Made by a program: the position numbers and the translations under genes. From IMG/VR virus record IMGVR_UViG_3300025065_000002: a stretch of DNA of 60,000 nt; one strand, written 5' to 3'. Origin of the DNA: a virus. Shown here piece by piece: positions 1-60,000 of the stretch. Each line of letters opens with the position of its first letter. Positions within the stretch are counted from its first letter, which is position 1. Below the pieces are notes generated by a model. The model was not told the origin of the DNA and did no database searches. It was given only the letters and a program-made list of their open reading frames with translations.

Positions 1-127
1 CGTTTGCAGGCACGTATTGATGCAACCAATCGCGTTAATGCACCCGACTTACTTGCTGACTTTGAAGCCGACGCGCCTAATGTTCTGAGTAATGATCCAG
101 CGCCTACTAATGCTCAAACAGCCACGC
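1..127. repeat. Window-wrap duplicate of 59874..60000 (circular junction of a 59,873-bp genome)
   Basis: First 127 nt (cgtttgcaggcacgtattga...caaacagccacgc) compared base by base with the last 127 nt: identical. Confidence 0.97.
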
Positions 128-3100: not shown

Positions 3101-6100
3101 AGAAGCAGGGCGCGCGCAGCGACTTCTTAGCCAACATCACACCTGAAGATGCCTTCCCTCGTAATATGGACAGATACCCATACTTACTACAGAGTGAGAT
3201 GGCGCCAGTGGCAGAAGCGTTTGATAACTTATTTGCCACTCTTGACAGTAAAGCTTCGGAAGACGGTAACGGCAAAACACTTTTTAGTCGTGCCGGACAG
3301 TTAAATGAAGCGATAGATAAAGTGAAGGCTGGCGCGATTGGCAGTACGCAGACCACCCGCCAGCAAGTCATTGGCAAACTAAACGATAAGTTTGGTAAAG
3401 AAACCATTACTAAGCTCATGAGCGACGGCAAACTTGATATCAAAGTGCTGTCCGACTTTATGCAAGACGGCAAGCTGACTATCCCTAGTGATGTCGATGG
3501 TCTATACCACAACGGCAAGGCCACCTTGATTGCAGACAACCTATCTGACGATATGATTATCCCGACCTTCTTACATGAGCTTGGTGGTCATGGTGGGATG
3601 CAAGGCTTGATGGACAAGAAAGCCTACGACGCGCTGATGAGAGATTTTGACAGCCTGGTTAAAGCAGGCGACCCATTAGCCATGCAAGCAAAAGCGATGG
3701 CGGATAAAGTCGCACGTAATGAGCAAGACGCACTCGATGAGTATCTGCCGTACCTAATCACACTTACCTCACGCCAGCAAGCCAAGCAAGGCAAGGTGGC
3801 TGGCATGATCAATCGTATGGTCATGGCGATACGCTCATGGCTTAAAAATACTTTAGGCGTACCGATTACCATTAACTCGCAAGATATCTTGTCACTGGCT
3901 GAACGCATGGTAAACGAGATTGAAAAGCAAGGCTCGCTAGATAACATGGCTAATGCAGCGCCACAATTTAGCGACCCGAATATTCCTGATAAGCAGATGC
4001 AGGACGTGCGCGACCAGTATGAAAATACCGATCAGTGGATGACTGCGCCTAATGGCAAGCCGACCAATTTGACTGAAAACCAGTGGGTGCAAACAAGAAC
4101 ACCAGCCTTTAAAGAATGGTTTGGTGACTGGCAGAACGACCCGAAAAATGCGTCTAAGATAGTCGACGATAATGGTGAGCCAAGAATAACCTATCATCAA
4201 ACAGATGATACGTGGAATACTTTTGACAAGTCGAAAGCCAAGGCTGGCAAGCATGACAATGAAACGCCAACAGGTATATTCGTAAAGGGTAGCGATAGAG
4301 ATATAGGTATTGGTGAGAACTTAAACCAAATGCCTTTATTTACCAATATAAAAAATCCGCTTGAACTAAAAGATAGGCAGGCAGCAAAAAAGTATTATGA
4401 AAGTAATATTGATGGCTATGCTGATATTGTCGCAAGCATGAAAAAGGATGATGACACCTATAGTAAGGCACTCGATGAAGCTGAGAGCAGTATTCAGGCT
4501 GAGTTGAAAAGAAGGTATGAGACTGGCGACCGTTCGCAAAGCTCGAAAGAGTTGTTTAAAAAATCTAGGGATATCCTGAACGAGTGGACAGCCAGTCAAC
4601 AAGCCAACTCGCTCGCTGCTAAAAAACTAATCGATGACCATTTAGCTGAAAACGATATTGACGGTGTGGTTCTTGAAGCAGATGAAGGCTCTTTTGGTCG
4701 AGAAACCGATGCGATTATTGCCATCAATAACAACCAAATCAAGTCTGCCACAGACAATATAGGCACCTTCGATAACACTAACCCTGACATCCGCTTCAGC
4801 GACCCGAACGTGCCAGCCAAACAGCTTGATGATGTTCGTACTAAACACGAAGGCACAGATGAATGGATGAAGGCGCCTAACGGTAGCGATACCAATCTAA
4901 CCGAACAACAATGGTTACAAGTTCGCACGCCAGCGTTCAAGAAATGGTTTGGGGATTGGGAGGATGACGCAGAGAATGCAAGCAAAGTCGTAGATGAAAA
5001 TGGCGAGCCGATGGTGGTTTATCATGGCAGCCCAAAAAGATTCTATAACTTTGACATAGATAACCTTGGTAAGCGCACTAATAACTTGGGGCATTTCGGT
5101 AAGGGTTTCTATTTCACACCAGATATAGATACCGCGAATAGATATGCTGGATATCGTGACTCACAAGGAGATACAGCCTATAACGATTCATCAACCACTT
5201 ATCGCGGTTACTTAAACATTAAGAAACCATTTTACGATACTTACGAAAATCTAAAGCCATACCTCGATGGTGTTGGCGTGCAAAAAATAAAAGATGGTAT
5301 AGATAGGGATTATTTAGAACAGCATATTCTTAATTACGACCCAGCTTTACAGATATTAATTGACGATGTAAACAAATCTAAAAGATATCCTGATGGAGAT
5401 AACACTTACGAGCAATATAAGAAAAACGGTGGCAAGCTTTCGGATGAATATCAGTCAGGCGTGCCTTTAGATTATGATGGGCTAGCTGGGATTCTGTTTG
5501 GAAACATATACCTAACTATGAGTGAGCGTGAGATTGACAGCATTCAAAAAATGATGGGCGCGATACCAGATAAGTATATTAGCGTGGGTTTCTCAGGGCA
5601 ACCGACTTTAGCGGAAGCAACTAGCTATGGTCAGAAGGATAATGGCATTACTGAAAACATAATGTCAGATGGGTTTGATGGGGTGATACACGCACCTGAC
5701 GGTGTGAGCAAGAAGTATATTGAGTACGTCGCCTTTAACCCCAACCAAATCAAATCCGCCACCGACAACGCTGGCACGTTTGACAGCAATAACAACGACA
5801 TCCGTTACAGCCGCGCCGCTGGTATGAATGATCAGTTCGACCCACGCAATATCGCTAAAGAAACAGCGACAAGACTTTACGACTGGGCGAGCTCCGCACC
5901 TCCTGGCAAACTATCGTGGTGGCACAAGACTATTGGCACCATGTATAACCTAGCTCAGCGCAACCCATACTTTAAACCTGTCTTCGAGAACACTGAGAAG
6001 TTTATCAACGATGTGTCGTTCTACGCAGCCAAAGCCTCAGAGCTTGCGCCAAGACTATTGCCGCAGCTTGACTCACTGCGCGATATCACCAAGTCTGCTA

Positions 6101-8775
6101 TCGGTGCCAAGGATAATGAAGCGCTAAGTAAGCCCATTTTTGAAGGTACGTTATTGTGGGGCCGCGACCTTGATGGCAAAGCAGTGCTCATCAAGGACTG
6201 GCGTAAAAAGGTAATGGCAACCTCAAAGCAAGACCGCTTGCAGATGCTAAAAGACGCCAACCGTATCACGCCAGCACAGCTGCAACAGCTTGCCACGCTA
6301 AACAACATCCAAGCCAACCGCTTTATCAATGGCATTATCGATGAAGAAGTGAACGCTGGTCTTGTCTGGACTGACAACGAGCTACGGTCTAAGTTCAATC
6401 TTGACGATAAGCAGATTGAATTATACCGAGAGTTCCGCGCTACCACAGACAATAGCCTTGATAGCATGACGCGCTCAGACATGCTCAGACGTTTGGGTAA
6501 AGATGCGACCGCTATTGAAACGGCAGTCATGGAAGCTGGCACGTTACGCGAAGCGGTCTTTACTATCGAGCAGCATATTAATGGCTTGATACAAGCCAGC
6601 CCGAAAAAAGAGAAGTCGCTAAAGAATACGTTGAAAGATATCAAGGAATCACAATTCCGCACCAATAAGCTAATCGATGATGGTTATGCGCCATTATCAC
6701 GCTTCGGTCAATACACGGTCGATGTCGTCGATAAAGACGGCAACCGTGAATACTTTGGTATGTTTGAATCTGCTTATGAAGCGCGCAAGATGAAGGGCGA
6801 GATGGATGCGCTGTATGGCGATGATCAAGACTTCACTGTTACCCAAGGCGCACTATCGAAAGAAGAGTTTAAATTGTTCGCTGGCGTGACACCTGAAACC
6901 GCTGAATTGTTTGGTGAGATGATGGGGCTTGATGCCACTGGTGACAAAGCGGCTGACGATGCGTTCCAAGAGTACCTACGCCGCACCAAAAACAACCGTA
7001 GCACCATGAAGCGCTTGATGCACCGTAAAGGTATCAAAGGTTATTCTGAAGACGTTGGCCGTGTGCTGGCGAGTTTTGTGTACTCAAATGCGCGTCATAC
7101 CTCAGCTGCTTTAAACATGGGCAACCTTGACCGTAGTATTCAAGACATACCAAAAGGCGAGGGCCAGTTAAAAGATGCTGCAGTCAAACTGGCGGAGTAC
7201 ATTAAAAACCCACAAGAAGAAGGCAACGTCATTCGTGGCTGGATGTTCGCGCAATACTTGGGTGGCTCGATTGCTTCTGCTGCAGTCAACATTACCCAAC
7301 CTATTGCCGTGTCATTCCCTTATCTGTCACAGTTCGGCGGCGCGGTCAAAGCAGCAAGCCAGCTCAAACGCTCAAGCAGTGATTGGGCCAAGTCACTGAA
7401 GAACAAGAACAATGATCACTTTGAGGCAGGCTTACGCGACGCAATCGCACGCGCTGAAGCAGATGGCACACTGTCACCACAAGAGGTTCACAACCTACTC
7501 AAGCAAGCCAGCGGTAAAAACCCACTGAGCGCCGGTGATGGTACAAAAATTGGTAACGCCAAAGCGCTGGCAGGTAACACACTGTCTCGCGTCAGTCTGG
7601 CATGGGGTTCGTTATTTAGTTTGGCAGAACAGGTCAACCGCCGCGTAACTTTTGTGGCAGCGTATCGCATGGCAGTCGAGCAAGGCATGGATAATCCGGC
7701 AGAGTTTGCTACCAAGTCGATTAAAGAAACGCAGTTTGTTTATAACAAAGCGTCACGTATGAATTGGGGGCGGGGTGCTGTCGGTGGCACGCTCATGACG
7801 TTTAAGACTTATACCGTATCTTACATTGAGCTGATGCACAGACTATGGAATCAGGGCGAGAAGGGGTCTGTTGAACGTGCCCAAGGTCGCAAAGCAACCA
7901 TGATTATGCTTGGCGTCATGTTCCTACTATCAGGTTCAGGCGGTTTACCATTTATGGAAGATGCGGAAGACTTGATTGATGGTATTGGTCAAATTATGGG
8001 CTACAACTTATCATCGAAGAAAGCACGACAAGACTTTTTGGATGCGTGGTTTGGTGAGATGATAGGGGACTTTATGGAGTCAGGCGCATCGAGTTTACCG
8101 GGTTCACCGACCGATGTATCAGGTCGATTAGGTCTTGGTAACTTAATACCAGGTACCGGTATTTTTAGAGAGCGCACCAATAATACCCGTGACGTGCTTG
8201 AGGTTGTCGGTCCGGCTGGTGATTTTGTTGGACGTGTCGCAACTGGCACCAGAGATATTGCCAAAGGCGTGGCAAACTTAGACGCCACAAGTATCAAGAA
8301 AGGTACATTAGAGCTCGCACCTACCGCCGTTCGCAACGCGGTCAAAGGTATAAGTATGGGCACATCGGGTATTTATAAAGATACCAAAGGCTATAAAGTC
8401 ACTGACGTGTCACCCGTTGATGCGGCTTTTAAATTTGCAGGATTCCAGCCGCTAAAAGTATCTAAGATTCAAGAGGCTAACTATCTTGGTCAAACGAATA
8501 CTTCTTACTACAGTTTGCGCGCCTCAAATATCCGCGCACTGTGGGCGGCTGGCGTGGTCGAAGGCAATAGCAGTAAAGTTGCTGATGCACGCGCTGCAGT
8601 TGCAGACTGGAATAACAAAAATCCTGATCAAAAAATCATCATCAAGCCCACTGATATCGCTCGCCGTGTCCGTGAGATGAAGATGGATAAGTCAGAGCGC
8701 GTCACCAAGCTGGCACCAAAGTCAATGCGCGCACAAATGGCGTCAGACTTTGCACAAGTACGTGACGGTTTTTAA
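1..8775 (+). CDS. Giant polyvalent virion protein, C-terminal part (codons 959-3882)
   Basis: ORF track 4..8775 (its TTG start is an artefact of the window edge). TAA stop at 8773-8775 is followed by an intrinsic terminator. Recognisable motifs: DFGEKITGARKD, GGQFGNWV...SLAHEWFHALDNHF, FLHELGGHGG, two YH..(G)FYFT-type modules each ending NQIKSATDN.GTFD...DIR(F/Y)S, and GYAPLSRFGQYTV. Confidence 0.9.
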   Translation, partial: RLQARIDATNRVNAPDLLADFEADAPNVLSNDPAPTNAQTATQLTDENPTVNIPAPKKAPRELSDKAMVREIQKPTTKNTETDYRAALNLSEGQNLGRLIMSSGRVFDDAVVKSMDDKGVTVEATVNGKRGLHKGLQYQTVDAGINNTKSYAEQQAAQESQATHESKLAEKYGFNDSNKLDHGELSIPNRTKNIDSELDRYKADKAKIDAKKLDEVKTKNTEKAEAETERLLPIKEQAQAEYKQYGTAMVNAYKDKLEAQGVNARDFIRDEAKYNPESFLKLSKKFQEEQQAEPQSQAEKSEAKAIKPQLNWTKDANGRKIWRADNGMIITDESMVVGGVRNKFFFLYENQTERYAGNNVERGESLSEAKDKAESLVKSKPEAAPETKKPTAKTEPSDNPSATGDWQTQVNGNEFRINEDGITVRKHDRVVHIRGANSITASKKAKELANQDIRELHYIAAKEDASDPFSEGSIWLDGNGDMVRKKGTKKPTGSLLPILKQAETKTAPKKADKPATPTAPVAEIEDFGEKITGARKDMQSFYQKEMTDDDIINQPLSKIWPKKDVDAIEDTQMAALATVFRSAIPSKPRKGYKLDRWVATVKTFRGVMQSMVSDTIPFDKIMDGLIASERMSEYAYHAKLLAKLDREQWSRIDKVDPQIGYQKRNEAGDYIPFVGFAVTIDKRTHTFNTEQRDISEIIDKVNNLLGGEVKTQALKFDLYSRGRGDAKSWFITQASDKDKTPLIEFNDRDAARAFLKENNSELSELWDQHKERVNVKKSDMRSNVNRERIGPDHRGGQDVTTEQFMNTFGLRGGQFGNWVKQGANSKDRQNILNDAYDAFMDLAGVLNIPPEAIGLGGKLAMSFGARGKGRAMAHYEPSQVIINLTKTQGAGSLAHEWFHALDNHFTSFRDDPNRLTSKENAYITYKPEPMLIMKDQNGNPSRMRPITEMRRKQLYEMNKNRAYLPENFMPDPNHKEGVRPQVEVAFANLVETLDESPMKARAVTIDKGAPDGYWSRIIERAARAFESYVINKLEKQGARSDFLANITPEDAFPRNMDRYPYLLQSEMAPVAEAFDNLFATLDSKASEDGNGKTLFSRAGQLNEAIDKVKAGAIGSTQTTRQQVIGKLNDKFGKETITKLMSDGKLDIKVLSDFMQDGKLTIPSDVDGLYHNGKATLIADNLSDDMIIPTFLHELGGHGGMQGLMDKKAYDALMRDFDSLVKAGDPLAMQAKAMADKVARNEQDALDEYLPYLITLTSRQQAKQGKVAGMINRMVMAIRSWLKNTLGVPITINSQDILSLAERMVNEIEKQGSLDNMANAAPQFSDPNIPDKQMQDVRDQYENTDQWMTAPNGKPTNLTENQWVQTRTPAFKEWFGDWQNDPKNASKIVDDNGEPRITYHQTDDTWNTFDKSKAKAGKHDNETPTGIFVKGSDRDIGIGENLNQMPLFTNIKNPLELKDRQAAKKYYESNIDGYADIVASMKKDDDTYSKALDEAESSIQAELKRRYETGDRSQSSKELFKKSRDILNEWTASQQANSLAAKKLIDDHLAENDIDGVVLEADEGSFGRETDAIIAINNNQIKSATDNIGTFDNTNPDIRFSDPNVPAKQLDDVRTKHEGTDEWMKAPNGSDTNLTEQQWLQVRTPAFKKWFGDWEDDAENASKVVDENGEPMVVYHGSPKRFYNFDIDNLGKRTNNLGHFGKGFYFTPDIDTANRYAGYRDSQGDTAYNDSSTTYRGYLNIKKPFYDTYENLKPYLDGVGVQKIKDGIDRDYLEQHILNYDPALQILIDDVNKSKRYPDGDNTYEQYKKNGGKLSDEYQSGVPLDYDGLAGILFGNIYLTMSEREIDSIQKMMGAIPDKYISVGFSGQPTLAEATSYGQKDNGITENIMSDGFDGVIHAPDGVSKKYIEYVAFNPNQIKSATDNAGTFDSNNNDIRYSRAAGMNDQFDPRNIAKETATRLYDWASSAPPGKLSWWHKTIGTMYNLAQRNPYFKPVFENTEKFINDVSFYAAKASELAPRLLPQLDSLRDITKSAIGAKDNEALSKPIFEGTLLWGRDLDGKAVLIKDWRKKVMATSKQDRLQMLKDANRITPAQLQQLATLNNIQANRFINGIIDEEVNAGLVWTDNELRSKFNLDDKQIELYREFRATTDNSLDSMTRSDMLRRLGKDATAIETAVMEAGTLREAVFTIEQHINGLIQASPKKEKSLKNTLKDIKESQFRTNKLIDDGYAPLSRFGQYTVDVVDKDGNREYFGMFESAYEARKMKGEMDALYGDDQDFTVTQGALSKEEFKLFAGVTPETAELFGEMMGLDATGDKAADDAFQEYLRRTKNNRSTMKRLMHRKGIKGYSEDVGRVLASFVYSNARHTSAALNMGNLDRSIQDIPKGEGQLKDAAVKLAEYIKNPQEEGNVIRGWMFAQYLGGSIASAAVNITQPIAVSFPYLSQFGGAVKAASQLKRSSSDWAKSLKNKNNDHFEAGLRDAIARAEADGTLSPQEVHNLLKQASGKNPLSAGDGTKIGNAKALAGNTLSRVSLAWGSLFSLAEQVNRRVTFVAAYRMAVEQGMDNPAEFATKSIKETQFVYNKASRMNWGRGAVGGTLMTFKTYTVSYIELMHRLWNQGEKGSVERAQGRKATMIMLGVMFLLSGSGGLPFMEDAEDLIDGIGQIMGYNLSSKKARQDFLDAWFGEMIGDFMESGASSLPGSPTDVSGRLGLGNLIPGTGIFRERTNNTRDVLEVVGPAGDFVGRVATGTRDIAKGVANLDATSIKKGTLELAPTAVRNAVKGISMGTSGIYKDTKGYKVTDVSPVDAAFKFAGFQPLKVSKIQEANYLGQTNTSYYSLRASNIRALWAAGVVEGNSSKVADARAAVADWNNKNPDQKIIIKPTDIARRVREMKMDKSERVTKLAPKSMRAQMASDFAQVRDGF
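2359..3135 (+). other. LPD1-type HExxH (metallopeptidase-like) module of the giant protein
   Basis: FGLRGGQFGNWVKQGANSKDRQNILNDAYDAFMDLAGVLNIP...AMSFGARGKGRAMAHYEP..INLTKTQGAGSLAHEWFHALDNHF. The HEWFH codons are at 2683-2697, followed by ERAARAFESYV. Confidence 0.65.
3967..4800 (+). other. ART-like module 1 (apparently degenerate)
   Basis: FSDPNIPDKQMQDVR...TPAFKEWFGDWQNDPKNASKIVDDNGEPRITYHQT...GIFVKG...DAIIAINNNQIKSATDNIGTFDNTNPDIRFS. It is collinear with module 2, but the Tyr (GFYFT) and Glu (IEYVAF) positions are replaced. Confidence 0.55.
4801..5811 (+). other. ART-like module 2 (H-Y-E-type signature intact)
   Basis: DPNVPAKQLDDVR...TPAFKKWFGDWEDDAENASKVVDENGEPMVVYHGS (5020-5031)...GKGFYFT (5101-5118)...YIEYVAFNPNQIKSATDNAGTFDSNNNDIRYS (Glu codon at 5722-5724). 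Confidence 0.6.
6691..6708 (+). other. PLxRFG motif of the giant protein
   Basis: Codons cca tta tca cgc ttc ggt encode PLSRFG within IDDGYAPLSRFGQYTVDVVD. Downstream are hydrophobic segments and AEQVNRRVTFVAAYRMA. Confidence 0.6.
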
Positions 8776-20341: not shown

Positions 20342-20347
20342 TTAATA

Positions 20348-20363: not shown

Positions 20364-20366
20364 CTA

Positions 20367-20564: not shown

Positions 20565-20567
20565 CTC

Positions 20568-20768: not shown

Positions 20769-20798
20769 GCGTTTTTCGGTTACCACAAGGGGAGGTCT

Positions 20799-20984: not shown

Positions 20985-21015
20985 GTGTTTTTAAGGCACC
21001 GAAAAGGAGACAAAT

Positions 21016-48189: not shown

Positions 48190-50769
48190 ATGCACCAGCC
48201 GCGCCCTTACGGGTTACACGTCATTGGCTTGCCACTAACTGATAAAGATGAAGCTTTTATCGGATCAGTAGCAAAGCGTATTACCAACCTCAAAGAACTA
48301 TCTAAGGTTGATAGTATTAAGATGGTGTATGACTTGCCGGACGGCGGCTATGTAATTGTGCAAGATATGGGTAGTAACTTTCGAGTCATTGCCCATAAGC
48401 CGGAATTAATAAAAGACATGCTCGCTAGTGGCATTGCGACTTACTATATACCTATGATTTACTCAGGGGTAATTACAAACGCAATAGCCTTGAAAGGTCA
48501 CGGCGTAGGCTTGCGCCTTACTGATGCAACCCTACTCAGACTTGCTGGTTACGATATCAATAAAACTTCAAAAGAAAAAGAGGTTCAATTAAGGCGATTT
48601 GTTGTTGAGTACGACGGTAGGTTTGGGGAGCTCAAACCATTAAACCCGTCGTCGTCACTTGTGGTGACTCAGTACGCCCAGCTTAGACCGACGTGGTATT
48701 CAGGTGCAATGGCTGAAGTGGTCCAAATTATAGGCGGTTACGGGCGACAAGACATCAACAACCTTCCAGCTGGCGAGTTTGAGCAAGCTCAGTTCGTACT
48801 ACCTAAAACCATTGAAGATAAGATAAAAGATGAAATGGGTGCTTATAGACTGCCAGGTTATACGGGCATGCCTAGTAGAGATGGTGGTATTAAGTATGAT
48901 TATAAATTTAATAATACGAACAGCATAGGTTTTGATGATAAAAATAAACCATGGCTTCTTAATATAGACTCTAGTGGCGTTTGGGCTATGCCACTTCCTA
49001 TTATACCGGCGACAACTACTCCAACATTTAAAGCTTATATTGCAGAAATGGGCGACGAGGAAGTTTTAAAGGTAGTTGATAGGTTTGGCGGTTTACCGAG
49101 TGGAGAGGCGTTTCCTACAGGGAAGGCTTTCCAAGCCTGGCGCCGCGCTGGAGTTGTCATAAAGGTGTGTGATACATCTGATTTTTACAGTCATATCGCT
49201 TATAGCAGTGCGTGCGGTTGGGCGGTAAACGACAGAGGGACAGAGGGTTATAATACGTGTTATGACTATATGGACGACGACGGCATAGGACTAGGGTTTA
49301 CCTACAAGCTTAGCTTATCCTTAAAAAACACGATTGATTATAAAGGATCCCCACTACGAGATTACGATAACTCTAATTATCAGCAAGCGGTGGTTAGCGC
49401 TTATATGCGATCACTGGTATCTGTAGTCAACAAAGGAACAGAAGAAGACAGAGCTATACTTTATAAGATAAGCAGATCTAGTGTGGCTGATATTTACAGC
49501 AGGGCGATAGTCACTGAGGGCAAAGATGATTATGCTTACTGGGATAATTTAGAACACGCGCCTATATCTAAACACGAAGGTCGTGTTTCAGAGGTTTATA
49601 GAGGGTACTTATATCACTTTTTAGACAAAAAATTTCAGCCGCAAATAAAATTCCCTGAGCCACTGTTAGGCGGCTGCGTATCTCACGACTTTCTACCTCT
49701 TAGTGGACGTAATAGGCAGAACCCCCCTAACAGCGACACGATTATGTTTGCATACTACATTGGGGATAGCTTGAATGTGGTTAAGTATTTCGTAAACTGG
49801 GATAGCATGATTAGGGGATCTGAGGATAATTTTGAGCGCGATATGACTGTGGGTAATTGGAGTAGGAAAGAGTACATCGGTAGCACAAAAATACAGGGGT
49901 TTTTCTATACTACTGATATCGACGAGCGTGAACTTATCGCTATCAGAGAAACCAATACTACAATAGTTGGCGCAGACAAGGGCTACGGAGGCAAGCCGAA
50001 ATTTGGTTACGATGGTCTTTTTCATATGTGCGGGACGATGTATAGAGACAGATACTACACCCATCAAAAAACGATTGTTACCGACTCTGGCAAGACGTTA
50101 GATATCGCTATATGTATTCCATACCTAGGTAGAAGCTCAATTATAAGCGCAAAAAAGACCACCATTTCCAGTCAAACCACTGTGAAGTCGCTAGATTTGT
50201 TAAGCAGGCGCGACCCAACATCTTATAGGTATTACACCTTTGATTTTGGTTTAGCGTATTTATCGATGACCATTAAAAACCCTAAAGGGCGACCAGAGCC
50301 TTGGGATGGTTACCCCGTATGGGTTGAGGAGATAAGATACCAGCCTTATGACGGCAGTGATTTTGCAGATAACGGACCGTGGCTTCCAGCTCTGCCTTAC
50401 GATGCAACATCTATTGTTAATCCTGACGGTAATACATGGGTTCAGAACTTTGGTGGTGAAAACCCCACGGCTGATGTGTATAGAATAAGCACTGAGCAAC
50501 AGTCTGTAACTACAGGGAACATCAAGGTTAGTTTGTTGAGTCCGTCCACAGTGCTAAGAAGTGTTGTTGCTGATTACGGGCACTTTGAAACATCACCTAA
50601 CGAGGTTGGTACTGTTTTTTATCGAGAGATGAGCGCTGTTGTTTTTGGAGACTCCGACTACCGTAGCGTTTCGGAGCCTGACGAAAGATCGGCGCGAGCA
50701 TACAAAGGCTACTCTAAGCTAGCTGATAGCAAATCAGCACATCATTTTATTGGAGTGATTAATGAGTAA
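48190..50769 (+). CDS. 859-aa virion protein (tailspike/receptor-binding candidate)
   Basis: A large late ORF with an AGGTGA RBS. I recognised no motif. Confidence 0.7.
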   Translation: MHQPRPYGLHVIGLPLTDKDEAFIGSVAKRITNLKELSKVDSIKMVYDLPDGGYVIVQDMGSNFRVIAHKPELIKDMLASGIATYYIPMIYSGVITNAIALKGHGVGLRLTDATLLRLAGYDINKTSKEKEVQLRRFVVEYDGRFGELKPLNPSSSLVVTQYAQLRPTWYSGAMAEVVQIIGGYGRQDINNLPAGEFEQAQFVLPKTIEDKIKDEMGAYRLPGYTGMPSRDGGIKYDYKFNNTNSIGFDDKNKPWLLNIDSSGVWAMPLPIIPATTTPTFKAYIAEMGDEEVLKVVDRFGGLPSGEAFPTGKAFQAWRRAGVVIKVCDTSDFYSHIAYSSACGWAVNDRGTEGYNTCYDYMDDDGIGLGFTYKLSLSLKNTIDYKGSPLRDYDNSNYQQAVVSAYMRSLVSVVNKGTEEDRAILYKISRSSVADIYSRAIVTEGKDDYAYWDNLEHAPISKHEGRVSEVYRGYLYHFLDKKFQPQIKFPEPLLGGCVSHDFLPLSGRNRQNPPNSDTIMFAYYIGDSLNVVKYFVNWDSMIRGSEDNFERDMTVGNWSRKEYIGSTKIQGFFYTTDIDERELIAIRETNTTIVGADKGYGGKPKFGYDGLFHMCGTMYRDRYYTHQKTIVTDSGKTLDIAICIPYLGRSSIISAKKTTISSQTTVKSLDLLSRRDPTSYRYYTFDFGLAYLSMTIKNPKGRPEPWDGYPVWVEEIRYQPYDGSDFADNGPWLPALPYDATSIVNPDGNTWVQNFGGENPTADVYRISTEQQSVTTGNIKVSLLSPSTVLRSVVADYGHFETSPNEVGTVFYREMSAVVFGDSDYRSVSEPDERSARAYKGYSKLADSKSAHHFIGVINE

Positions 50770-52147
50770 CTATAGAGACGACAATCAAGACACAGCGATT
50801 GCCAGCAGCAAAACTTTTGGTGGTCTGCGTGCCGTAGTCGATGAAGTGCTGCGCGTATCGGACGCCCTGCTTTTTGGTATTGCTATTACCGTATCTAGTA
50901 GCACCCTTGCCAGCGATGAGGTGATTGATAGCAGTATTCAAGTGTTGCATGACAGCGCTTTAATATCTGAACACGTAACAGATACCAAAGTAGCAAGCCA
51001 ACTACACATCGATAGCGCCAAAGCGAACGAGCAATACCTACACGGTCTACTGGCGGTGCAATCTGATAGCGCTACGGCCATCGATGAGATACTAAGTGGT
51101 AGCACGCGCTCGATTACCAATGACAGTGCCCAAGTATCTGACAGCACAACCAGCCAGCGCATTGTCACGCACTTAGTCACTGATAGCGCACGCGCCACAG
51201 ACAGTATCACAGCCATTGAGCGTGACCTGATTATCGATAGCCTGTTTATTGCTGATGGTGCCACCGATAAGCTGCAAGCGGTGCAATTAATCAGTGATAG
51301 TGCTGGCGCGACCGATAGCGCTATTGGCAGTATCGCAACCCTTATTACAGACAGCGCCTTTGCTTATGGGCAGCCATTCACGCAGCGCAATGTCACAAGT
51401 TTTGTGGCAGACAGTACACCTATCAGTGACCAACTGCTATTCAATCGTGCTGATATTATCATCGATGATGTAGCTATCAGTGACACGACTACTGGTAAGT
51501 TTGGTGCTACCGGCACGTTGATTGATACCGCCGTCATTAGCGATACCGTCCTTGATAGTATTATTCAAAACGCTGTCATCATGGATAGTATTGCTATCAC
51601 TGACGAGGTGATAGATAAGCTCGATGCCATGGTATTGATTATCGATGGCGCAGTGATTGAAGATAGCGTGCTTAGTAGTGGCGGCGCCCAAGGTCAAGCA
51701 TGGACAGCAAACGTCGATAGCTGGGCAATGAGCCGTTACAATCCTTACAATTACAATCGCTTGGTCGTTATCAACGGCGTGCTATATGGTGAAGCTGATG
51801 ATGGTATCTATCGCCTTGACCAAGAAGTAAGCGCAGTAACGGCCATTGTTAAAACTGGCAAGATGGATTTAGGGCGTGGTCAACTCACGCATCCAGCAAG
51901 CGCCTATCTTGAGTATGAGCTAAACGGCGGTGCCAGTATGACGGTACATAGCACCCAAAAGGGTATAGAGCAGCAATATACCTACATGCTACCAAACGAG
52001 CTGGCTGGCAAGCTGACCAATGGCCGCTTTATCTTTGGTCGCGGATTGCGTGGCCGTCACTTTGCTTTTGAATTAATCATGATCGGTACGCATGGGCATA
52101 TCAATGACCTGACTATCGAGCACTTACCAACCAGTCGGAGAGTATAA
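50762..52147 (+). CDS. Virion protein with about 13 (I/T/S)DSAxxxD repeats
   Basis: HDSALISEH, IDSAKANEQ, SDSATAIDE, NDSAQVSDS, TDSARATDS, SDSAGATDS, ... IDTAVISDT, MDSIAITDE. Confidence 0.72.
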   Translation: MSNYRDDNQDTAIASSKTFGGLRAVVDEVLRVSDALLFGIAITVSSSTLASDEVIDSSIQVLHDSALISEHVTDTKVASQLHIDSAKANEQYLHGLLAVQSDSATAIDEILSGSTRSITNDSAQVSDSTTSQRIVTHLVTDSARATDSITAIERDLIIDSLFIADGATDKLQAVQLISDSAGATDSAIGSIATLITDSAFAYGQPFTQRNVTSFVADSTPISDQLLFNRADIIIDDVAISDTTTGKFGATGTLIDTAVISDTVLDSIIQNAVIMDSIAITDEVIDKLDAMVLIIDGAVIEDSVLSSGGAQGQAWTANVDSWAMSRYNPYNYNRLVVINGVLYGEADDGIYRLDQEVSAVTAIVKTGKMDLGRGQLTHPASAYLEYELNGGASMTVHSTQKGIEQQYTYMLPNELAGKLTNGRFIFGRGLRGRHFAFELIMIGTHGHINDLTIEHLPTSRRV

Positions 52148-52148
52148 G

Positions 52149-54836
52149 ATGGCCTTAACCATTAGAGGCGCGATAGCAGACAATATGCTATACCGAGCCA
52201 CGGACACCGTGGTTGAAAAGATAAAAGACTTGGATAGCCTATCAAGACGCTACAACAATGAGTTGTCAGTGGCGCTAAGTGACATTGGCGATATTACGAT
52301 TGCCGATATACCAGCACCGATTAGACCGCAAGTGCCAGAAGCAGTAGTACCAACCTATGATATCGGCGCATTCCCAACATTCGACCCTGCCAGCCTAACC
52401 ATTCCTGCCATGCCCAACATGACGGACATTGATAGGTTTTTAAGCAATCTTGATGTGTCAGACTTGGGGCCAGAACCCGAAGCACCAGCTGAGATATCTA
52501 TCACGCCGCCACAAGCACCCGAGCTTGAACGGGTAGACCTGCCAGCACGCCCAGATATTGTGACCACGGTTGCCTTCCCTGATGCACCGACTATCGACCC
52601 GATTGTCATGCCAGAGCGCAATCAAACGACAATCACGATAGACATTCCTGACTTGCCATCGATTGATGCGGTCGCAGCGCCCGATAGACCAAACGTTGAT
52701 TTAAGCGTCAATATGCCATCCGCGCCAACGCTTACTGAGCACGACGCACCCAATGAGCCGGACTTTGATACCAGTGTTGTACTGCCAACGCTTGATGCTA
52801 TTGATAAGCTGAACGCGCCACAGCGACCTGACGTTGATGTCAATGTAGACATGCCAGCAGATTTTGATTTGGTACTGCCAGAGCTAGCACAGCTCGAAGC
52901 ATTAAAGATTGATGATTTTGTGATGCCCGACTTGAATCTGCCGGACATGCCAAACGCTGACCATCAATTTGATGAGATGGATTTTAACGAGGACTGGTGG
53001 CAAGAGCCGCCCGCTTACGATCATCCGCTGTATGACGACCTGATAACGGTTGCCAGCGACATGCTCAATAAGCCTGAAAACTTTGGTTTACCTGAAGCAG
53101 TGGTACGTGCTTTGTTTGATAAGCCACGCGAGCGTATCAGCGCCGAGGTTGAGCGCAGTGTACAAGAAGCGACTAATACTTGGGCAGGTCGTGGGTTTAG
53201 CATGCCGCCTGGTATGCTAGCCAAGCAAGTGAACGTCGCAAGACAAGAGGGGCAGCTACGTGTCGCTGATTTAAACCGTGATGTATTCATGGAAGCCAGT
53301 AAGATGCAAATCGATGCGCTAAAATTTGCGGTCGAGAAAGGCATGGCGCTGGAACAAGCAACCTATAACCGCTGGCTTGATACCACCAATCGACTATTTG
53401 AAGTGGCCAAGTACAATGTCGAGGCAAATTTTCGCTTGTACGAGTATCAATTCACCATTTTTAATGCGCAAAACGAAGGCTTTAAGATACTGGTCGATAC
53501 TTATAAGACCAAGCTTGATATGTTCGTCAGTAAAATCAGGCTGGAGATTGAGAGTAAGGTCGCCCAAGGTCAGCTGAACGCGCAAGAGCTGGAAGTCTAT
53601 AAAGCAAAATTGGCTGGTGCGGCCGCTGATGGTGAGCTGTTTAAAACCAAGATGCTTGCCGTACAAATGCGTGTCGATATTATCAAGGCGCAGTTTGATG
53701 TCTATAAAACCGATATGCAGGCTTATGCTGAGCAGCTTGGCGCTGAACGTCTAAAACTTGAGAAGTATGATATTGAAATGCGCGGCGCTCAAACTAAGGT
53801 TGGTATCGCCCAGACGCAAGCGGATATCTACGCCAAACGCATACAAGCCTATGGTGGCAAGCTCGATGGCGAACGCTTAAAGCTTGAGCTGTATAAAGCC
53901 AGTATCGATGGTGAGCAAGCCAAGTTAGGAGTGGCACAGACGCAAGCACAGATATACGGCACTGACATTCAAGCTTACACTGCCAAGCTTGGTGGTGAAA
54001 AGGTCAAGCTTGAGATGCACGAGGCGGCGCTACGCGGCGAAGCTATCAAGGCCGGTATTATGCAGACCGAAGCTGGTATCTATGAAACCGATGTACGGGC
54101 AGCACTGGCACAATCAGAGTCCGGTAAGCTTATGCTTGCCAGCTTTGAGGCGCAGATTAAAGCCAAGCAAGCTGAGCTTGGTATTGGTGAGACGCAGGCA
54201 AGAATATACAGCAGTGATATCGATGCGTACAAAGCCCAGAATGACGCGCAGAAAGTGAAGTTTGACGCCTTTGATAGTCAAGTAAAAGCGGAAACCGCTA
54301 AGGCTGAAATCTATGACAGCACCGTAAGAGCGTTTGCCAGTCGCGTACAAAGCTATGCTTCAAAAAATGATGTCAAAGTTAAGCAGGCGCAGATTAATAT
54401 TGATGCCGCTCGCGCTTATGTAACCACATACCTTGCGGATGTTGATGGGTTTAAAGCAGAGCTGCAAGCAGGGCTTGGTGAGGTGCAATACAATACACAG
54501 GTATTCCAAGCGCAGGTTGAGGGCTGGCGCGCACAAGTGGCGGCCAATACTGCCGACAGTGAGATGCAATCACGCTATGCGGATATGAACACGCGCACCA
54601 ACTTGGCTTATGCTGAGATGCAGATGAGCGAGTACAATGCCAAGGTCAGTCAAGCGCAGGAGCAAGCACGTATCGCGCTAGAGGCGGCTAAAGCTACTGG
54701 TCAATATACCGCACAGCTTGCAGCAGGGGCAATGAGTGCCGCGCACGTATCAGCGAGTATTAGCGGCTCAGGTAGTGCGGGCATCTCGTCGAGCGATAGC
54801 GAAAGTGAATCAACCAGTCATAACTATAGTTACTAG
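52149..54836 (+). CDS. 895-aa internal/ejection-type protein with Pro-Asp-rich N-terminus and 42-aa tandem repeats
   Basis: The N-terminal half has many short P..D-containing segments (e.g. PDRPNVDLSVNMP, PQRPDVDVNVDMP). From about 53717 to 54350 there are repeats with a 126-nt period (QAYAEQLGAERLKLEKYD..., QAYGGKLDGERLKLELYK..., QAYTAKLGGEKVKLEMHE...). Confidence 0.78.
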   Translation: MALTIRGAIADNMLYRATDTVVEKIKDLDSLSRRYNNELSVALSDIGDITIADIPAPIRPQVPEAVVPTYDIGAFPTFDPASLTIPAMPNMTDIDRFLSNLDVSDLGPEPEAPAEISITPPQAPELERVDLPARPDIVTTVAFPDAPTIDPIVMPERNQTTITIDIPDLPSIDAVAAPDRPNVDLSVNMPSAPTLTEHDAPNEPDFDTSVVLPTLDAIDKLNAPQRPDVDVNVDMPADFDLVLPELAQLEALKIDDFVMPDLNLPDMPNADHQFDEMDFNEDWWQEPPAYDHPLYDDLITVASDMLNKPENFGLPEAVVRALFDKPRERISAEVERSVQEATNTWAGRGFSMPPGMLAKQVNVARQEGQLRVADLNRDVFMEASKMQIDALKFAVEKGMALEQATYNRWLDTTNRLFEVAKYNVEANFRLYEYQFTIFNAQNEGFKILVDTYKTKLDMFVSKIRLEIESKVAQGQLNAQELEVYKAKLAGAAADGELFKTKMLAVQMRVDIIKAQFDVYKTDMQAYAEQLGAERLKLEKYDIEMRGAQTKVGIAQTQADIYAKRIQAYGGKLDGERLKLELYKASIDGEQAKLGVAQTQAQIYGTDIQAYTAKLGGEKVKLEMHEAALRGEAIKAGIMQTEAGIYETDVRAALAQSESGKLMLASFEAQIKAKQAELGIGETQARIYSSDIDAYKAQNDAQKVKFDAFDSQVKAETAKAEIYDSTVRAFASRVQSYASKNDVKVKQAQINIDAARAYVTTYLADVDGFKAELQAGLGEVQYNTQVFQAQVEGWRAQVAANTADSEMQSRYADMNTRTNLAYAEMQMSEYNAKVSQAQEQARIALEAAKATGQYTAQLAAGAMSAAHVSASISGSGSAGISSSDSESESTSHNYSY

Positions 54837-55727: not shown

Positions 55728-55736
55728 GTCCTGCCC

Positions 55737-55750
55737 ACCCCTATAAGGTT
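55737..55750 (+). promoter_or_regulatory. Late-block motif copy 4 (ACCCCTATAAGGTT)
   Basis: The 14-mer is identical to the other three copies and lies 67 nt upstream of the 55804 ORF start. Confidence 0.55.
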
Positions 55751-55806
55751 TTAAGAAACTTAGTATATCCGCCATACTCATCTAAAGTCTAATTGAATTA
55801 TAGGTG

Positions 55807-56988
55807 ATGGTTATGGCATTTGGAGCAATGGGTGGCGCAGGTGGCTCTTGGGATGATGAAGAGAAAAAGAAAAGAGAGCGATTGCGTAACACGAATAGCG
55901 TTCTAGGTATCAGTGGTATTGGTCAGATGGCTAACGAAGCGGCTGCGCGTAACAAAGCCTCACAAGAAATTAGAACGCCTTACAACTCTACGGCAGAATC
56001 GCGTGCCAGCAATGCAGCGCTTCTAAATAAAATAGGGGTCGATCCAACCAACCCATACGTGAAGGGCGTGCCTAAACCCGAACCAGCTAATAACTATCCT
56101 TCTGTTTATGCTGGCAAGCAACAATCAATACCAGAGGAAGCAATATCTGGCACCTACGTTGAGCAGCCACAGCAGACCACACCGCCACGCATCGGCTTTA
56201 ATCCCGTAAATAATCCGCAAGCTATTAAAAATAATGGCTCAGGATTCCGTATGCCAAACGCGCCGCGCCGCACCATGGCTGAACAACAAGAGCGTCAAGC
56301 CTTGCTCCGTGATGCTAGTACCGCACATAAAGGCGCGCAGAATGGACAGCTTACCGCCAGTCAGATGCAGCTACGAGCTGGCATTGTTAGCGCTGATGAT
56401 AAGTATAAAAACGATCAGTACGGCGCACAGCTCGGTGCAGCAAGTCAGATGGCGCAAGCGCAAATGTCGCAAGATGGTGCCAATCAACGTGCCGTCTTAG
56501 GTGAGGCTGGCACCAATGCTCGCTTAAACTCTCAGCTTGGTTTTGATGCGGATAAGTTTCAACAGACAGCCGCCGCAGAACAGCAGAGATCTGGACTTGA
56601 TGCTCGCCGCTTAGATATGGAGCAGGCCAATAATGACGTGGCGAATTTTGCACCGAAGCAGCTTAACGCCTTGTATGAGAAATTCGATGCCGCACAAAGC
56701 GACGAAGATAGAAGCGCAATCGCTAAGCAAATTCAGGCGCTAAAAGGAACAGCCGATAAGAAAAGCAAACCTATTGTTATTACTCAAACAGGTGAATCGC
56801 CATTACCAGGCGACTTGGGCGGCGTTAAGAAAAACCCGTCTATTATTTACGACCCTGATAGCAATGAGTTTATCGACCTACCGAAAAAGGAAATCAACTT
56901 CTCTGATCCCGAAGTCCTTGCCATCGTAGGCAATCGAGATTTAAGTGATGAAGAAATGCAAGCCCAGATTGCCGCCCTATACAGTTAA
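55807..56988 (+). CDS. Gln/Ala-rich internal/ejection-type protein
   Basis: ORF in the track (GTG 55804; ATGs at 55807 and 55813). Composition is low-complexity Q/A/N-rich, and it lies directly upstream of the giant gene. Confidence 0.68.
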   Translation: MVMAFGAMGGAGGSWDDEEKKKRERLRNTNSVLGISGIGQMANEAAARNKASQEIRTPYNSTAESRASNAALLNKIGVDPTNPYVKGVPKPEPANNYPSVYAGKQQSIPEEAISGTYVEQPQQTTPPRIGFNPVNNPQAIKNNGSGFRMPNAPRRTMAEQQERQALLRDASTAHKGAQNGQLTASQMQLRAGIVSADDKYKNDQYGAQLGAASQMAQAQMSQDGANQRAVLGEAGTNARLNSQLGFDADKFQQTAAAEQQRSGLDARRLDMEQANNDVANFAPKQLNALYEKFDAAQSDEDRSAIAKQIQALKGTADKKSKPIVITQTGESPLPGDLGGVKKNPSIIYDPDSNEFIDLPKKEINFSDPEVLAIVGNRDLSDEEMQAQIAALYS

Positions 56989-56999
56989 GGTAAATACCA

Positions 57000-59900
57000 A
57001 TGAGTGATTATAAAGACGACAAAGACCCAGCATTGGAAGCAGCTCGCCAGCGCAGCCAACAGATAGCTCAATTCATTAAAGAGAATCGCGCCGCACCAAA
57101 CAAAGGGATTGGTGGGCATATACGTGACCTAGGATTAACTGCATTATCGGGCGCGGTATCTGTTCCGGAATTGGCTGTTGGTTTGGCTGACATTCCAACT
57201 GGAGGCCGTGTCGGTAAGTTTTTAGAGAACGAGGACGGCGCGTTTGGCTTTCGCCCGGGCGAGGCGAAGGCGGCAATCGCTGGCGCTAAAACAAAACGCT
57301 CGCAAGAACAGTTGCAAGAGTTTACCGATACCGAAGGACTTGGTGGTAAAGTTGGTTACGCACTAAAAAACCCTTCACTAATTACCAATACTGTAGTGGA
57401 ATCCTTGCCGTCTATGTTTGCAGGCGGCGTCATTGGTCGCGGACTAGGTGCAGCTGCTAAGGGCTTATCGCCCGTTGCCGCTGGTGCGTTAGGTGAAGGT
57501 GCAGTCGGCGCTGGCCTTGCCGCTGAACAGATACGTCAGCAAACTGACGATGGCTTATTGACTGGCAAGCAAGCAGGGCTTGCCGCTGCTACTGGTGCTA
57601 CTACCGCAGGCTTTGGTTATGCTGGTGGTCGCCTTGCTAAGAAACTTGGTATCGGTGATATTGATACCATCGTCGCTGGTGGTGGTCGTACTGCCACACC
57701 TGGAAGCGAGATTGTTGGTAGCAACGCCGTCAGCAAAGGTATCGCCAGACGTGCAGCGGAAGGCGCACTTACTGAAGGCTTACTAGAAGAGTTACCGCAA
57801 TCGGTATCTGAGACCATCTTACAGAACGAAGCGTTAGGTCGCCCGCTTAATGAAGGCGTGACCGATGCCGCCGCGCTTGGCTTATTATCCGGTGCTGCTA
57901 TGGGCGCTGGCGCTGGCATGTTTGCCCGTAATCGCAGACCAGAAGACAGAATTACACCCACTGAAGATATGGGGCAAGAGGACGCCGACTACGGTCCAAC
58001 CAATCCTAATAATCCGCTATCTGGCAGAGGTCTTCCTAATCCTACACTATTACTTGAAAACCAAGCAGCGCCGCAACTTGGCTTTCAAGGCAGAGCCAGT
58101 AATCAGTTTAACGCAGGACCAGACGGCGAAGTATTCACAGGCGACCAGTACAATGAGTATCTAGCAGGTCAGCAAGAGCGTGCCCGTAATGCGCGTGATG
58201 CTGGCATGCAGCCTAGAAATTTTGAGGATGTGACGCAATCGCCGCAAGGTTACGATCAGTTTGGCAATGACCCACGCTTGCCAGCGCCAGACGGTACGGA
58301 TTTTACCGCCAGTCAAGACGGTCAGGTTTATGGCCGTGATGATATTAATACCAGGTTAAGCCAAGAACGTGATGCCGCAGCCGAGCGCCGAGCACGCATT
58401 GCTCGCGGTGAAATCTTAGATATAACGCCAGTACCACAAGCGCCAAAACCGTCTGAGCTAATGGGACTTGACCCGAACAAAGGCAGTCTAAGTGCGGCCG
58501 CTGCCATTGCGGTGGACACGGGCGCGAGTTCAGTGGCGGCAGATTTTGAGCAGGCGAGTGCGCAATCTAGTGAGAATCCAGCGACACGCATGGCTGGTTT
58601 GGTTGAAGTTGAAACGCAAGAGCAGCCGACAGGTAGTAAGTGGCTGCAAAGTATGCGCACCAGTCTAGCTACTGCTGATATCGACAACGGCACTTATCAA
58701 GCGCTATCGCAATCGATTGAAGCTGACCCTAAGTCAGTACCAGAACGCGCACGCCTTAAAAAAGCCATTGATGCGCTGCCAAAAAAACCTGAACCTACCG
58801 CCAAAAAGATCGACCCTAAAGCTCGCGTTATTGATGAAGCTAAAGCGCAGTCTGTGGCCTACAACCCTAGAGGTGACAAAATACCGCTACAGTTTGATGT
58901 GGTTGATGCAAGTGAGCTTTTATCTAGCCATAGCAACAACTTTGTAGAAAACCCTGATTACCCGCAGCAATATCAGCCACGCGATAGAGCGGATGCTGGA
59001 TATCAAGCGCAAGTGCTTGATATCGTCAAAAAATTTAACCCCGAACTACTAGGTAAGGATAACTCTGTCAATGCTGGTAGTCCTATTGTTGGGCGTGACG
59101 ACAACCTAGTTGAGTCTGGCAATGGTCGTACTATCGCTATCCGTAGAATGTACGAGTCTGGCAAGGGAGATGCCTATCGTCAATTTGTAAATAAAAGTGC
59201 TGAAGAGTTTGGTCTTGATGCCAATGCTATCAATCAGATGCAGCAACCAGTCCTTGTACGACGCAATAATTCCGATATGGATAGAGAGCAGTTTGCCTTA
59301 CGTGCTAATGCCCCGACTGGCGCAGCTATGAGTAGCAGTGAACGTGCGAAAGCAGACGCTAAGATATTGCCAAACGCTGACCTCCTAGAGCTTGATAGCA
59401 ATGGTAGTTTAAACCTAAAAGGCAGTTATAAATTTACTCAAGCCTTCATCGGCTCGCTTGATAAAAATGAAGTAAATGAGCTTGTACTATCTAATGGAGA
59501 GTTGTCACAGACTGGGCAGAACCGAGTGTCAGGTGCACTACTTCAAAATGCTTACGGCTCATCAAAGCTAACCAAAGCAGTGACAGAAGATATTGATTCC
59601 AGCGCTAAGAACGTGCTTAAAACCTTGGTTGATAAAGCGCCACAAATAACCAAGATTAATCAATCTATTAAGGAAGGCAATCGTGAAGCCGATACTCTAT
59701 CAGAAGATATAAAGACTGCTGCTGAAACTTATATTGATCTTGTGGAGAGTGGCGCCAATATTGACGACTATCTAAATATGGAAGATATGTTTGGAGAGGG
59801 TATTAGCCCACAATCCAAAGAGATTGTCCGAGATTTCTATAGCAATGCACGCTCAGCAACTAGGATGGGGTCACGTTTGCAGGCACGTATTGATGCAACC

Positions 59901-60000
59901 AATCGCGTTAATGCACCCGACTTACTTGCTGACTTTGAAGCCGACGCGCCTAATGTTCTGAGTAATGATCCAGCGCCTACTAATGCTCAAACAGCCACGC
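57000..60000 (+). CDS. Giant polyvalent virion protein, N-terminal part (continues at nt 1 across the circular junction; full gene 57000..59873 + 1..8775 = 11,649 nt, 3,882 aa)
   Basis: ATG 57000 is preceded by an in-frame TAA at 56991 and by AAGG upstream. My manual translation of this frame to nt 60000 found no stop. The ORF track lists no ORF ending in this frame, as expected for an ORF that runs off the window. The frame matches ORF 4..8775 through the 127-nt overlap. The N-terminus has Gly/Ala-rich hydrophobic stretches (SMFAGGVIGRGLGAAAKG..., GLAAATGATTAGFGYAGG). Confidence 0.88.
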   Translation, partial: MSDYKDDKDPALEAARQRSQQIAQFIKENRAAPNKGIGGHIRDLGLTALSGAVSVPELAVGLADIPTGGRVGKFLENEDGAFGFRPGEAKAAIAGAKTKRSQEQLQEFTDTEGLGGKVGYALKNPSLITNTVVESLPSMFAGGVIGRGLGAAAKGLSPVAAGALGEGAVGAGLAAEQIRQQTDDGLLTGKQAGLAAATGATTAGFGYAGGRLAKKLGIGDIDTIVAGGGRTATPGSEIVGSNAVSKGIARRAAEGALTEGLLEELPQSVSETILQNEALGRPLNEGVTDAAALGLLSGAAMGAGAGMFARNRRPEDRITPTEDMGQEDADYGPTNPNNPLSGRGLPNPTLLLENQAAPQLGFQGRASNQFNAGPDGEVFTGDQYNEYLAGQQERARNARDAGMQPRNFEDVTQSPQGYDQFGNDPRLPAPDGTDFTASQDGQVYGRDDINTRLSQERDAAAERRARIARGEILDITPVPQAPKPSELMGLDPNKGSLSAAAAIAVDTGASSVAADFEQASAQSSENPATRMAGLVEVETQEQPTGSKWLQSMRTSLATADIDNGTYQALSQSIEADPKSVPERARLKKAIDALPKKPEPTAKKIDPKARVIDEAKAQSVAYNPRGDKIPLQFDVVDASELLSSHSNNFVENPDYPQQYQPRDRADAGYQAQVLDIVKKFNPELLGKDNSVNAGSPIVGRDDNLVESGNGRTIAIRRMYESGKGDAYRQFVNKSAEEFGLDANAINQMQQPVLVRRNNSDMDREQFALRANAPTGAAMSSSERAKADAKILPNADLLELDSNGSLNLKGSYKFTQAFIGSLDKNEVNELVLSNGELSQTGQNRVSGALLQNAYGSSKLTKAVTEDIDSSAKNVLKTLVDKAPQITKINQSIKEGNREADTLSEDIKTAAETYIDLVESGANIDDYLNMEDMFGEGISPQSKEIVRDFYSNARSATRMGSRLQARIDATNRVNAPDLLADFEADAPNVLSNDPAPTNAQTAT
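58855..59160 (+). other. ParB/sulfiredoxin-fold-like segment of the giant protein
   Basis: Translated segment reads ...DVVDASELLSSHSNNFVENPDYPQQYQPRDRADAGYQAQVLDIV...SPIVGRDDNLVESGNGRTIAIRRMY. The QPRDR and GNGRT motifs resemble the ParB-like domains described in phage and conjugative-element polyvalent proteins. Recognised by eye only. Confidence 0.5.
59874..60000. repeat. Window-wrap duplicate of 1..127
   Basis: Identical to nt 1-127. It lies inside an open reading frame and preserves that frame. Confidence 0.97.

Follow-up and report, generated by a model that had tools for sequence, protein, structure and literature searches.

A giant gene spanning the ends of a circular phage contig very probably encodes a polyvalent virion protein of the PLxRFG class

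Introduction

Polyvalent proteins of phages and conjugative elements are multi-domain products of late genes that combine ddrB-ParB, ADP-ribosyltransferase (ART; HYD2 clade), LPD, and metallopeptidase modules and are predicted to be delivered with the DNA (Iyer et al. 2017, PMC5512222). The ddrB-ParB, LPD, and ART-PolyVal domains were defined for these proteins in the same study, in which a text search finds no mention of 'PLxRFG'. Here, we analyzed IMG/VR virus record IMGVR_UViG_3300025065_000002, a stretch of 60,000 nucleotides (nt) of viral DNA referred to as the window, in which one giant gene runs across both ends. The product of this gene is very probably a polyvalent virion protein of the PLxRFG class and the counterpart of gp60 of phage H66 and of the giant gene of phage F116.

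Giant polyvalent proteins fill approximately one-fifth of the genome in many 55-65-kb phages, and we know of no member of the PLxRFG class with a known target or a solved structure. The closest published relative of the window protein is the product of open reading frame (ORF) 9 of Shewanella phage vB_SbaS_Y11 (WIF21962.1, 3,372 aa; PMC10846135). Among more distant systems, gp69 of the Bcep22-like phage JC1 was detected with 51 unique peptides (PMC9144972), and gp47 of the Stx phage phi24B, which carries LPD5 and LPD1, is abundant in virion proteomics, is invisible by cryo-electron microscopy, and was proposed to be an ejection protein (bioRxiv 10.64898/2026.04.10.717836).

Results

Reconstruction of the giant gene across the contig ends

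The two ends of the window are identical over 127 nt, which was the sole match when overlap lengths of 20-3,000 nt were checked, and the sequence therefore closes into a 59,873-bp circle. De Bruijn assemblers run at k=127 usually produce circular contigs whose ends overlap by just this length. The parts of the giant gene in the window are as follows.

59874..60000 (= 1-127), no strand: 127-nt terminal overlap, the circularization signature
57000..60000, + strand: 5' part of the giant gene, aa 1-1000, starting at ATG 57000 and open to the window end
1..8775, + strand: 3' part of the giant gene, with nt 1 following nt 59873 in the circle and the stop at 8773-8775

The start codon is preceded by an in-frame TAA (56991-56993), 9 nt 5' of ATG 57000, and by a ribosome-binding site (AAGG, 56987-56990); the stop of the preceding gene occupies 56986-56988. 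The identical termini, the ATG following an in-frame stop, and a gene crossing the edge had all been described in the initial annotation and were confirmed in the sequence. Recircularization at 59873/1 and translation from 57000 to 8775 yielded a single ORF of 11,649 nt (3,882 aa, 19.5% of the genome), which has no internal stop and joins the ORF 4..8775 in frame.

The terminal repeat encodes aa 959-1001 of the giant protein. The Y11 protein aligns through the junction (window aa 18-1016, 57% identity), as do two further relatives, P0124 (aa 18-1134, 73% identity) and P0123 (aa 7-1015, 51% identity). As these relatives align unbroken through the repeat-encoded residues and beyond, the circular junction is, on these alignments, real and not a chimera.

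Domain composition of the giant protein

The ddrB-ParB, LPD5, LPD1, and two ART-PolyVal domains all scored above the Pfam gathering thresholds, which places the protein among the polyvalent proteins. The features along the chain are listed below.

57099..57941, + strand: N-terminal Gly/Ala-rich module, aa 34-314, conserved in all relatives
58869..59267, + strand: ddrB-like ParB/Srx domain, aa 624-756 (PF18763; QPRDR 659, GNGRT 707)
175..1512, + strand: Lys/Glu-rich insert, aa 1017-1462, with three small unnamed sub-modules
1558..3249, + strand: LPD5 - HEWFH - LPD1 unit, aa 1478-2041, a predicted CLCA_X-type zincin
3283..3966, + strand: FLHELGGHG module, aa 2053-2280 (motif 2148-2156), a conserved mobile cassette
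3967..4794, + strand: ART unit 1, aa 2281-2556 (Pfam match 2347-2548; triad positions H2357, F2385, D2528)
4795..5805, + strand: ART unit 2, aa 2557-2893 (Pfam match 2623-2885; triad positions H2633, Y2662, E2866)
5806..8772, + strand: conserved C-terminal region, aa 2894-3882 (PLxRFG domain aa 3186-3867, PLSRFG 3189-3194)

The PLxRFG model NF032893 matched the C-terminal region over profile positions 2-680 of 681 (E 2.8e-200, 667 bits against a cut-off of 100). In 95 homologues, the P, L, R, and G of the motif were invariant and the F nearly so (at least 90%). The AlphaFold (AF2) model of the PLxRFG region, with a predicted local distance difference test score (pLDDT) of 79, was almost all helical. 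A strongly hydrophobic helix is located at aa 3592-3610, about 270 residues from the protein end. The extreme C-terminus is charged, and the hydrophobic C-terminus claimed in the initial annotation was therefore not retained. Sequence searches of solved structures with both protein halves and two profiles gave no match.

The N-terminal module shows two hydrophobic peaks (aa 44-62 and 290-308), and Gly and Ala together make up 29-36% of the first 300 aa, in agreement with the Gly/Ala-rich hydrophobic segments noted initially. Residues 51-310 aligned with aa 80-345 of the virion RNA polymerase (vRNAP) of Acinetobacter phage XC38, an N4-like phage (Schitoviridae; BLASTP E 1e-26, 32% identity). 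In the N4 vRNAP, the N-terminal region is the part required for injection (Iyer et al. 2017, PMC5512222).

The ddrB-ParB profile PF18763 was matched over positions 2-120 of 121 (E 3.9e-32, 111 bits against a cut-off of 27.6), and the conserved active-site arginine is present in GNGRT (aa 707-711). The Lys/Glu-rich insert that follows (aa 1017-1462) is missing from the Y11 protein and from that of Pseudoalteromonas phage Y7. A word-indexed search with the insert gave no match; an exhaustive HMMER search gave 78 matches, so the insert is not an orphan. Its sub-modules were found both within other large proteins (2,000-4,000 aa), at similar positions, and as small stand-alone proteins (64-190 aa), which matched no Pfam family.

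The next unit comprises DFGEKITGARKD at 1484, LPD5 at 1647-1765 (E 1e-19, 71 bits against a cut-off of 27), HEWFHALD at 1853-1860, and LPD1 at 1964-2041 (E 1e-13, 51 bits against a cut-off of 27). Seven residues (H1853, E1854, W1855, H1857, D1860, E1977, and E1984) were invariant across 64 aligned homologues. Most homologues have both LPD5 and LPD1, which suggests that these domains and the HExxH motif between them belong to a single unit. The CLCA_X model NF041907, which represents predicted zincin metalloproteases known mainly from phages and plasmids (PMC3650047), matched this stretch with an E value of 7e-35. The AF2 model of aa 1478-2075 (pLDDT 89.6, predicted template modeling score 0.81) shows the HExxH helix preceded by a helix and three strands, an arrangement that is the zincin core as given by Iyer et al. 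2017 (PMC5512222). The profile match and the model suggest that the unit is probably a zincin-type peptidase.

LPD1 is the helix region past HEWFH and is separate from the FLHELGGHG module. This module matched no named profile. It is 93-96% identical in four relatives (P0121, P0123, P0124, and P0205) and 80-84% identical in two others (P0199 and P0122), and its flanks differ among them; more distant copies come after LPD5-LPD1 units in numerous proteins that are approximately 1,000 aa long. By these comparisons, the module is a real, conserved, and mobile cassette. The second module proposed in the initial annotation was thus upheld as a conserved entity, but it could not be assigned to a named profile.

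The ART-PolyVal profile (PF18760), scored unit by unit against a cut-off of 31.2, gave 51.9 bits for unit 1 and 57.4 bits for unit 2. The relationship of the two units as repeats was not reported by self-BLASTP and was recovered by Pfam and a MAFFT alignment; they share a leader (TDxWMxAPNG...TPAFKxWFGDW) and an end (NQIKSATDNxGTFDxxNxDIR(F/Y)S). ART-PolyVal is defined by an H-Y-D triad, with His in strand 1, Tyr in strand 2, and the acidic residue in strand 5 (PMC5512222). The triad of unit 2, as assigned by a small alignment and not by the Pfam seed, is complete with Glu in place of Asp. Unit 2 is not present in Y11 or Y7.

The profiles expected in the initial annotation (ParB-like, LPD-type, ART-PolyVal, and PLxRFG) all matched above the curated cut-offs, and the polyvalent architecture that it proposed is supported by domains of the Iyer et al. 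2017 set. Its motifs were likewise all found (QPRDR 659, GNGRT 707, DFGEKITGARKD 1484, HEWFH 1853, FLHELGGHG 2148, and PLSRFG 3189).

Conserved ends and exchanged cassettes among relatives

The giant gene comes after the genes for the major head protein and the head closure protein Hc3 and after large virion-module genes. Its position agrees with that in Y11, F116, H66, and 8P, where the order is head closure protein, several large genes, giant gene, and lysis genes. The proteins of Y7 and of the F116-like Pseudomonas phages (H66 and 8P) have only the N-terminal module and the C-terminal region in common with the window protein. Phage 8P (5,145 aa) shares just aa 34-425 and 2926-3879, and Y7 (4,675 aa) carries an Eco57I-type methylase and ResIII/Helicase_C domains in its middle. 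The family therefore has conserved ends and exchanged middle cassettes. More distant PLxRFG proteins were found in Bcep22-like phages and in Klebsiella, Erwinia, Serratia, Rhizobium, and Vibrio phages.

The breakpoints between relatives coincide with cassette borders. A short motif, [RKLQM][FY]S[RDK][APS] (xFS(R/D)), occurs exactly at four borders (aa 2052, 2280, 2556, and 2893; window 3280, 3964, 4792, and 5803). In 43 giant proteins, the border motif was observed 34 times against 4.5 expected from shuffles, a count inflated by shared ancestry. It could mark either a point of recombination or a site of processing.

Three Psychrobacter assemblies, among them P. cibarius W1, contain the nearest genomic relatives, which show 87-89% identity in the C-terminal domain and lie on 22-55-kb contigs. 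The giant ORFs of these relatives reach only approximately 2,748 aa. The host genus of the phage is probably Psychrobacter, as the nearest genomic relatives sit in assemblies of this genus.

Upstream genes, cysteine content, and virion evidence

Three virion-module genes upstream of the giant gene were compared with their Y11 counterparts.

50762..52147, + strand: upstream virion-module gene, 461 aa, no Cys, 87% identical to the Y11 counterpart
52149..54836, + strand: upstream virion-module gene, 895 aa, no Cys, 77% identical to Y11
55804..56988, + strand: gene directly upstream of the giant gene, 394 aa, no Cys, C-terminal part 51% identical to Y11

The gene at 52149..54836 is related to gene 021 of phage 8P, which is annotated as 'structural protein'. 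The genes at 52149 and 55804 had been labeled ejection-type in the initial annotation; this label gained no profile support but draws on synteny and the lack of cysteine.

The giant protein contains no Cys in 3,882 aa, compared with 0.79% in the other genes of the phage (Poisson P ~4e-14). Together with the three upstream genes, it forms a run of four consecutive genes encoding 5,632 residues without Cys. Cysteine is likewise absent from 30 of 39 giant relatives, from the XC38 vRNAP (3,323 aa), and from T7 gp15 and gp16, which are proven ejection proteins. We infer that the absence of cysteine reflects selection for passage in an unfolded state. No earlier description of this Cys-free composition was encountered, although no search aimed at one was made.

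The record of H66 gp60 states 'verified by mass spectrometry as part of the virion'. By analogy with relatives of this kind, the window protein would be packaged and ejected; it may also be processed.

Discussion

Evidence against the assignment and alternative readings

Several results weigh against the reading of the giant protein as a polyvalent virion protein with enzymatic cassettes. The neighboring genes had no match in Pfam and NCBIfam except a spurious SMC coiled-coil. The CLCA_X score of 121 bits is under the whole-family cut-off of the model (260). Foldseek and profile searches of solved structures with the zincin unit gave no significant match and no solved zincin, so that the peptidase assignment is no more than probable. 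In the small alignment, ART unit 1 has Phe at the catalytic Tyr position, and the single ART units of Y11 and Y7 read His-Phe-Lys, with the acidic residue absent; judging from these residues, some ART units may be inactive. The PLxRFG model had no neighbor among solved structures (best E 0.95). Homology of the PLxRFG region to T7 gp16 was rejected, as the hhalign probability fell from 10% with a single sequence to 0.6% with a nine-member gp16 alignment, and homology to the C-terminus of the XC38 vRNAP was also rejected (profile probability 0.3%).

Part of this evidence bears on the alternative that the giant protein is mainly a structural ejection-channel protein, a functional analogue of T7 gp16, in which the cassettes are accessory or partly decayed passengers. 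Conservation across the family is restricted to the two ends, full catalytic triads are absent in ART unit 1 and in the Y11 and Y7 units, and the giant gene ends a run of large Cys-free genes, as T7 gp16 follows gp14 and gp15. A Foldseek search of predicted viral structures with the PLxRFG model also gave weak matches to 'internal virion protein D' of Roseobacter phage CRP-4 (E 7e-7, TM 0.40), Vibrio phage ICP2 (E 5e-7), and Bordetella phage BB8 (E 0.015). However, the gp16 family alignment reached the profile-profile probability of only 0.6% given above, and no solved structure of the T7 core emerged from the fold search. Both the zincin motif and the triad of ART unit 2 are intact, and close relatives retain the cassettes at 80-96% identity, which argues for selection on the enzymes. 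We thus consider a mainly structural role improbable.

The annotation of relatives as 'DarB-like antirestriction' raises a second alternative, in which a methylase-helicase core, like that of P1 DarB, shields the incoming DNA from type I restriction. PHROG 10089 (DarB-like) matched aa 133-618 (E 3e-11), and Y7 does have Eco57I-type methylase and ResIII/Helicase_C domains. However, the PHROG 10089 match is confined to the shared N-terminal module, and no domain was found behind the 'methyltransferase' label of Y11. Searches for a methylase or helicase gave no match at E<=0.1 with the whole protein or at E<=5 with the unassigned segments. A DarB-like protein in the strict sense was ruled out, as no methylase or helicase domain was found, and a DarB-like antirestriction function is very improbable.

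An N4-like virion RNA polymerase was also considered and rejected, with no polymerase profile match and the N-terminal module alone in common. That the long ORF is an assembly artefact, produced by a false circular join or by a sequencing error fusing two genes, is hardly credible: the 127-nt overlap alone supports the join and the giant gene is annotated as two coding sequences (CDS) in the F116 RefSeq record, but three independent relatives are continuous across the junction and past it, the giant gene is a single ORF (3,372-5,145 aa) in each of H66, 8P, Y11, and Y7, and the 11,649-nt ORF has no stop.

Proposed mechanism and implications

As a polyvalent virion protein, the giant protein would be made late and packed into the head. 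At infection, it would exit through the tail in an unfolded state, ahead of or with the DNA. The conserved ends, i.e., the Gly/Ala-rich N-terminal module and the all-helical C-terminal region of about 990 residues, would serve in delivery and would probably help to form a channel through the cell envelope as well. The channel role is proposed by analogy only, because the profile comparisons give no homology to T7 gp16 or to the XC38 vRNAP C-terminus. The variable middle would consist of exchangeable enzyme cassettes acting early in the host. The ddrB-type ParB/Srx cassette would be directed at nucleotides or DNA, the CLCA_X-type HExxH zincin may cut the polyprotein into units, and the unnamed HELGGH module and the two ADP-ribosyltransferases (the second with a full H-Y-E triad) would be further cassettes.

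A more speculative extension, which we regard as rather unlikely, is a self-processing cargo train. In this scheme, the ends would be a general delivery device, the absence of Cys would be selected, and the HEWFH zincin would free the ARTs and other enzymes at the border motif inside the host. If true, the conserved ends would constitute a delivery device for very large proteins, part of which is shared with N4-like vRNAPs. If the lack of cysteine is a selected requirement for unfolded transit of the tail and periplasm, cysteine-free runs of late genes would predict ejection proteins.

The four-gene run found here, which parallels T7 gp15/gp16, may be a cheap sequence marker of ejected proteins. 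The window protein also offers a clean domain map and two confident models without solved relatives, and comparison of its mosaic relatives separates fixed parts (delivery) from swapped ones (effectors).

Neighboring genes and annotation of relatives

Just downstream of the giant gene, 9379-10026 (+) encodes a fusion of WDGH (PF25311, E 2e-43) and a Tad2-like Thoeris anti-defence domain (PF11195, E 6e-21), and the gene before it at 8999-9382 (+) is related to crAss001_48. Judging from these matches, the genes at 8999-10026 look like a small anti-defence cluster beside the effector gene. Between two of the virion-module genes, a 968-nt gap contains an ORF of 291 aa at 54906-55781 (-), where the gap in Y11 is 139 nt. 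This ORF had no PHROG, Pfam, or NCBIfam match and may be an inserted accessory gene (moron).

Three database records of relatives appear to be affected by annotation problems. The giant CDS in the Y7 GenBank record OR791114 starts at nt 126, and similarity extends to nt 15; the record was probably cut inside the giant gene, as judged from this similarity. The giant gene of F116 is divided into two CDS in RefSeq (9839-21200). ORF9 of Y11 (11887-22005) is named 'methyltransferase', and no methylase domain was found in it. When the cut in a circular genome falls within a giant gene of this kind, the gene can easily be missed or wrongly annotated. The labels 'methyltransferase' and 'DarB-like' have spread to members without such domains.

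Comparison with described systems

The XC38 vRNAP (gp14) shares the N-terminal Gly/Ala-rich module with the window protein and is likewise a giant, Cys-free, injected virion protein; it lacks a PLxRFG domain, and the window protein lacks an RNA polymerase domain. Phi24B gp47 (2,811 aa) has LPD5 and LPD1 as in the window protein but differs in carrying LPD38 and an MuF-C metallopeptidase; the PLxRFG domain does not appear in the paper, and no ART or ParB is listed there.

The 'DarB-like' proteins gp75 of Bcep22-like phages and JC1 gp69 (4,515 aa) take up about one-fifth of the genome, have a PLxRFG-type end, and were found in virions. The PLxRFG-type region is 23-25% identical in related Klebsiella, Erwinia, and Serratia phages. 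Unlike the window protein, in which no methylase or helicase domain was found, JC1 gp69 has a helicase-type (HepA superfamily) match. The giant proteins of the Hollowayvirus phages, H66 gp60 (3,787 aa) and the F116 gene product, match the window protein in the N-terminal module (about 57% identity) and in the C-terminal PLxRFG region (56% identity), and their genes occupy the same place, just ahead of the lysis genes. The middle of the H66 protein is entirely different, with LPD23, LPD3, an S-adenosylmethionine (SAM) methylase, and two HExxH modules, and with no ddrB-ParB and no ART.

Y11 ORF9 shows the same order of N-terminal module, ddrB-ParB, LPD5, HEWFH, LPD1, HELGGH, ART, and PLxRFG, with 57-72% identity in three colinear blocks, and the neighboring genes correspond. 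It differs in lacking the aa 1017-1462 insert and the second ART, and the triad of its single ART is H-F-K. The combination had been called uncharacterized in the initial annotation; the published Y11 protein shares the domain order apart from the insert and ART unit 2, but the exact combination was not found elsewhere among the relatives examined. The window protein thus has a particular combination of cassettes within an already known kind of protein, the PLxRFG-type polyvalent virion proteins.

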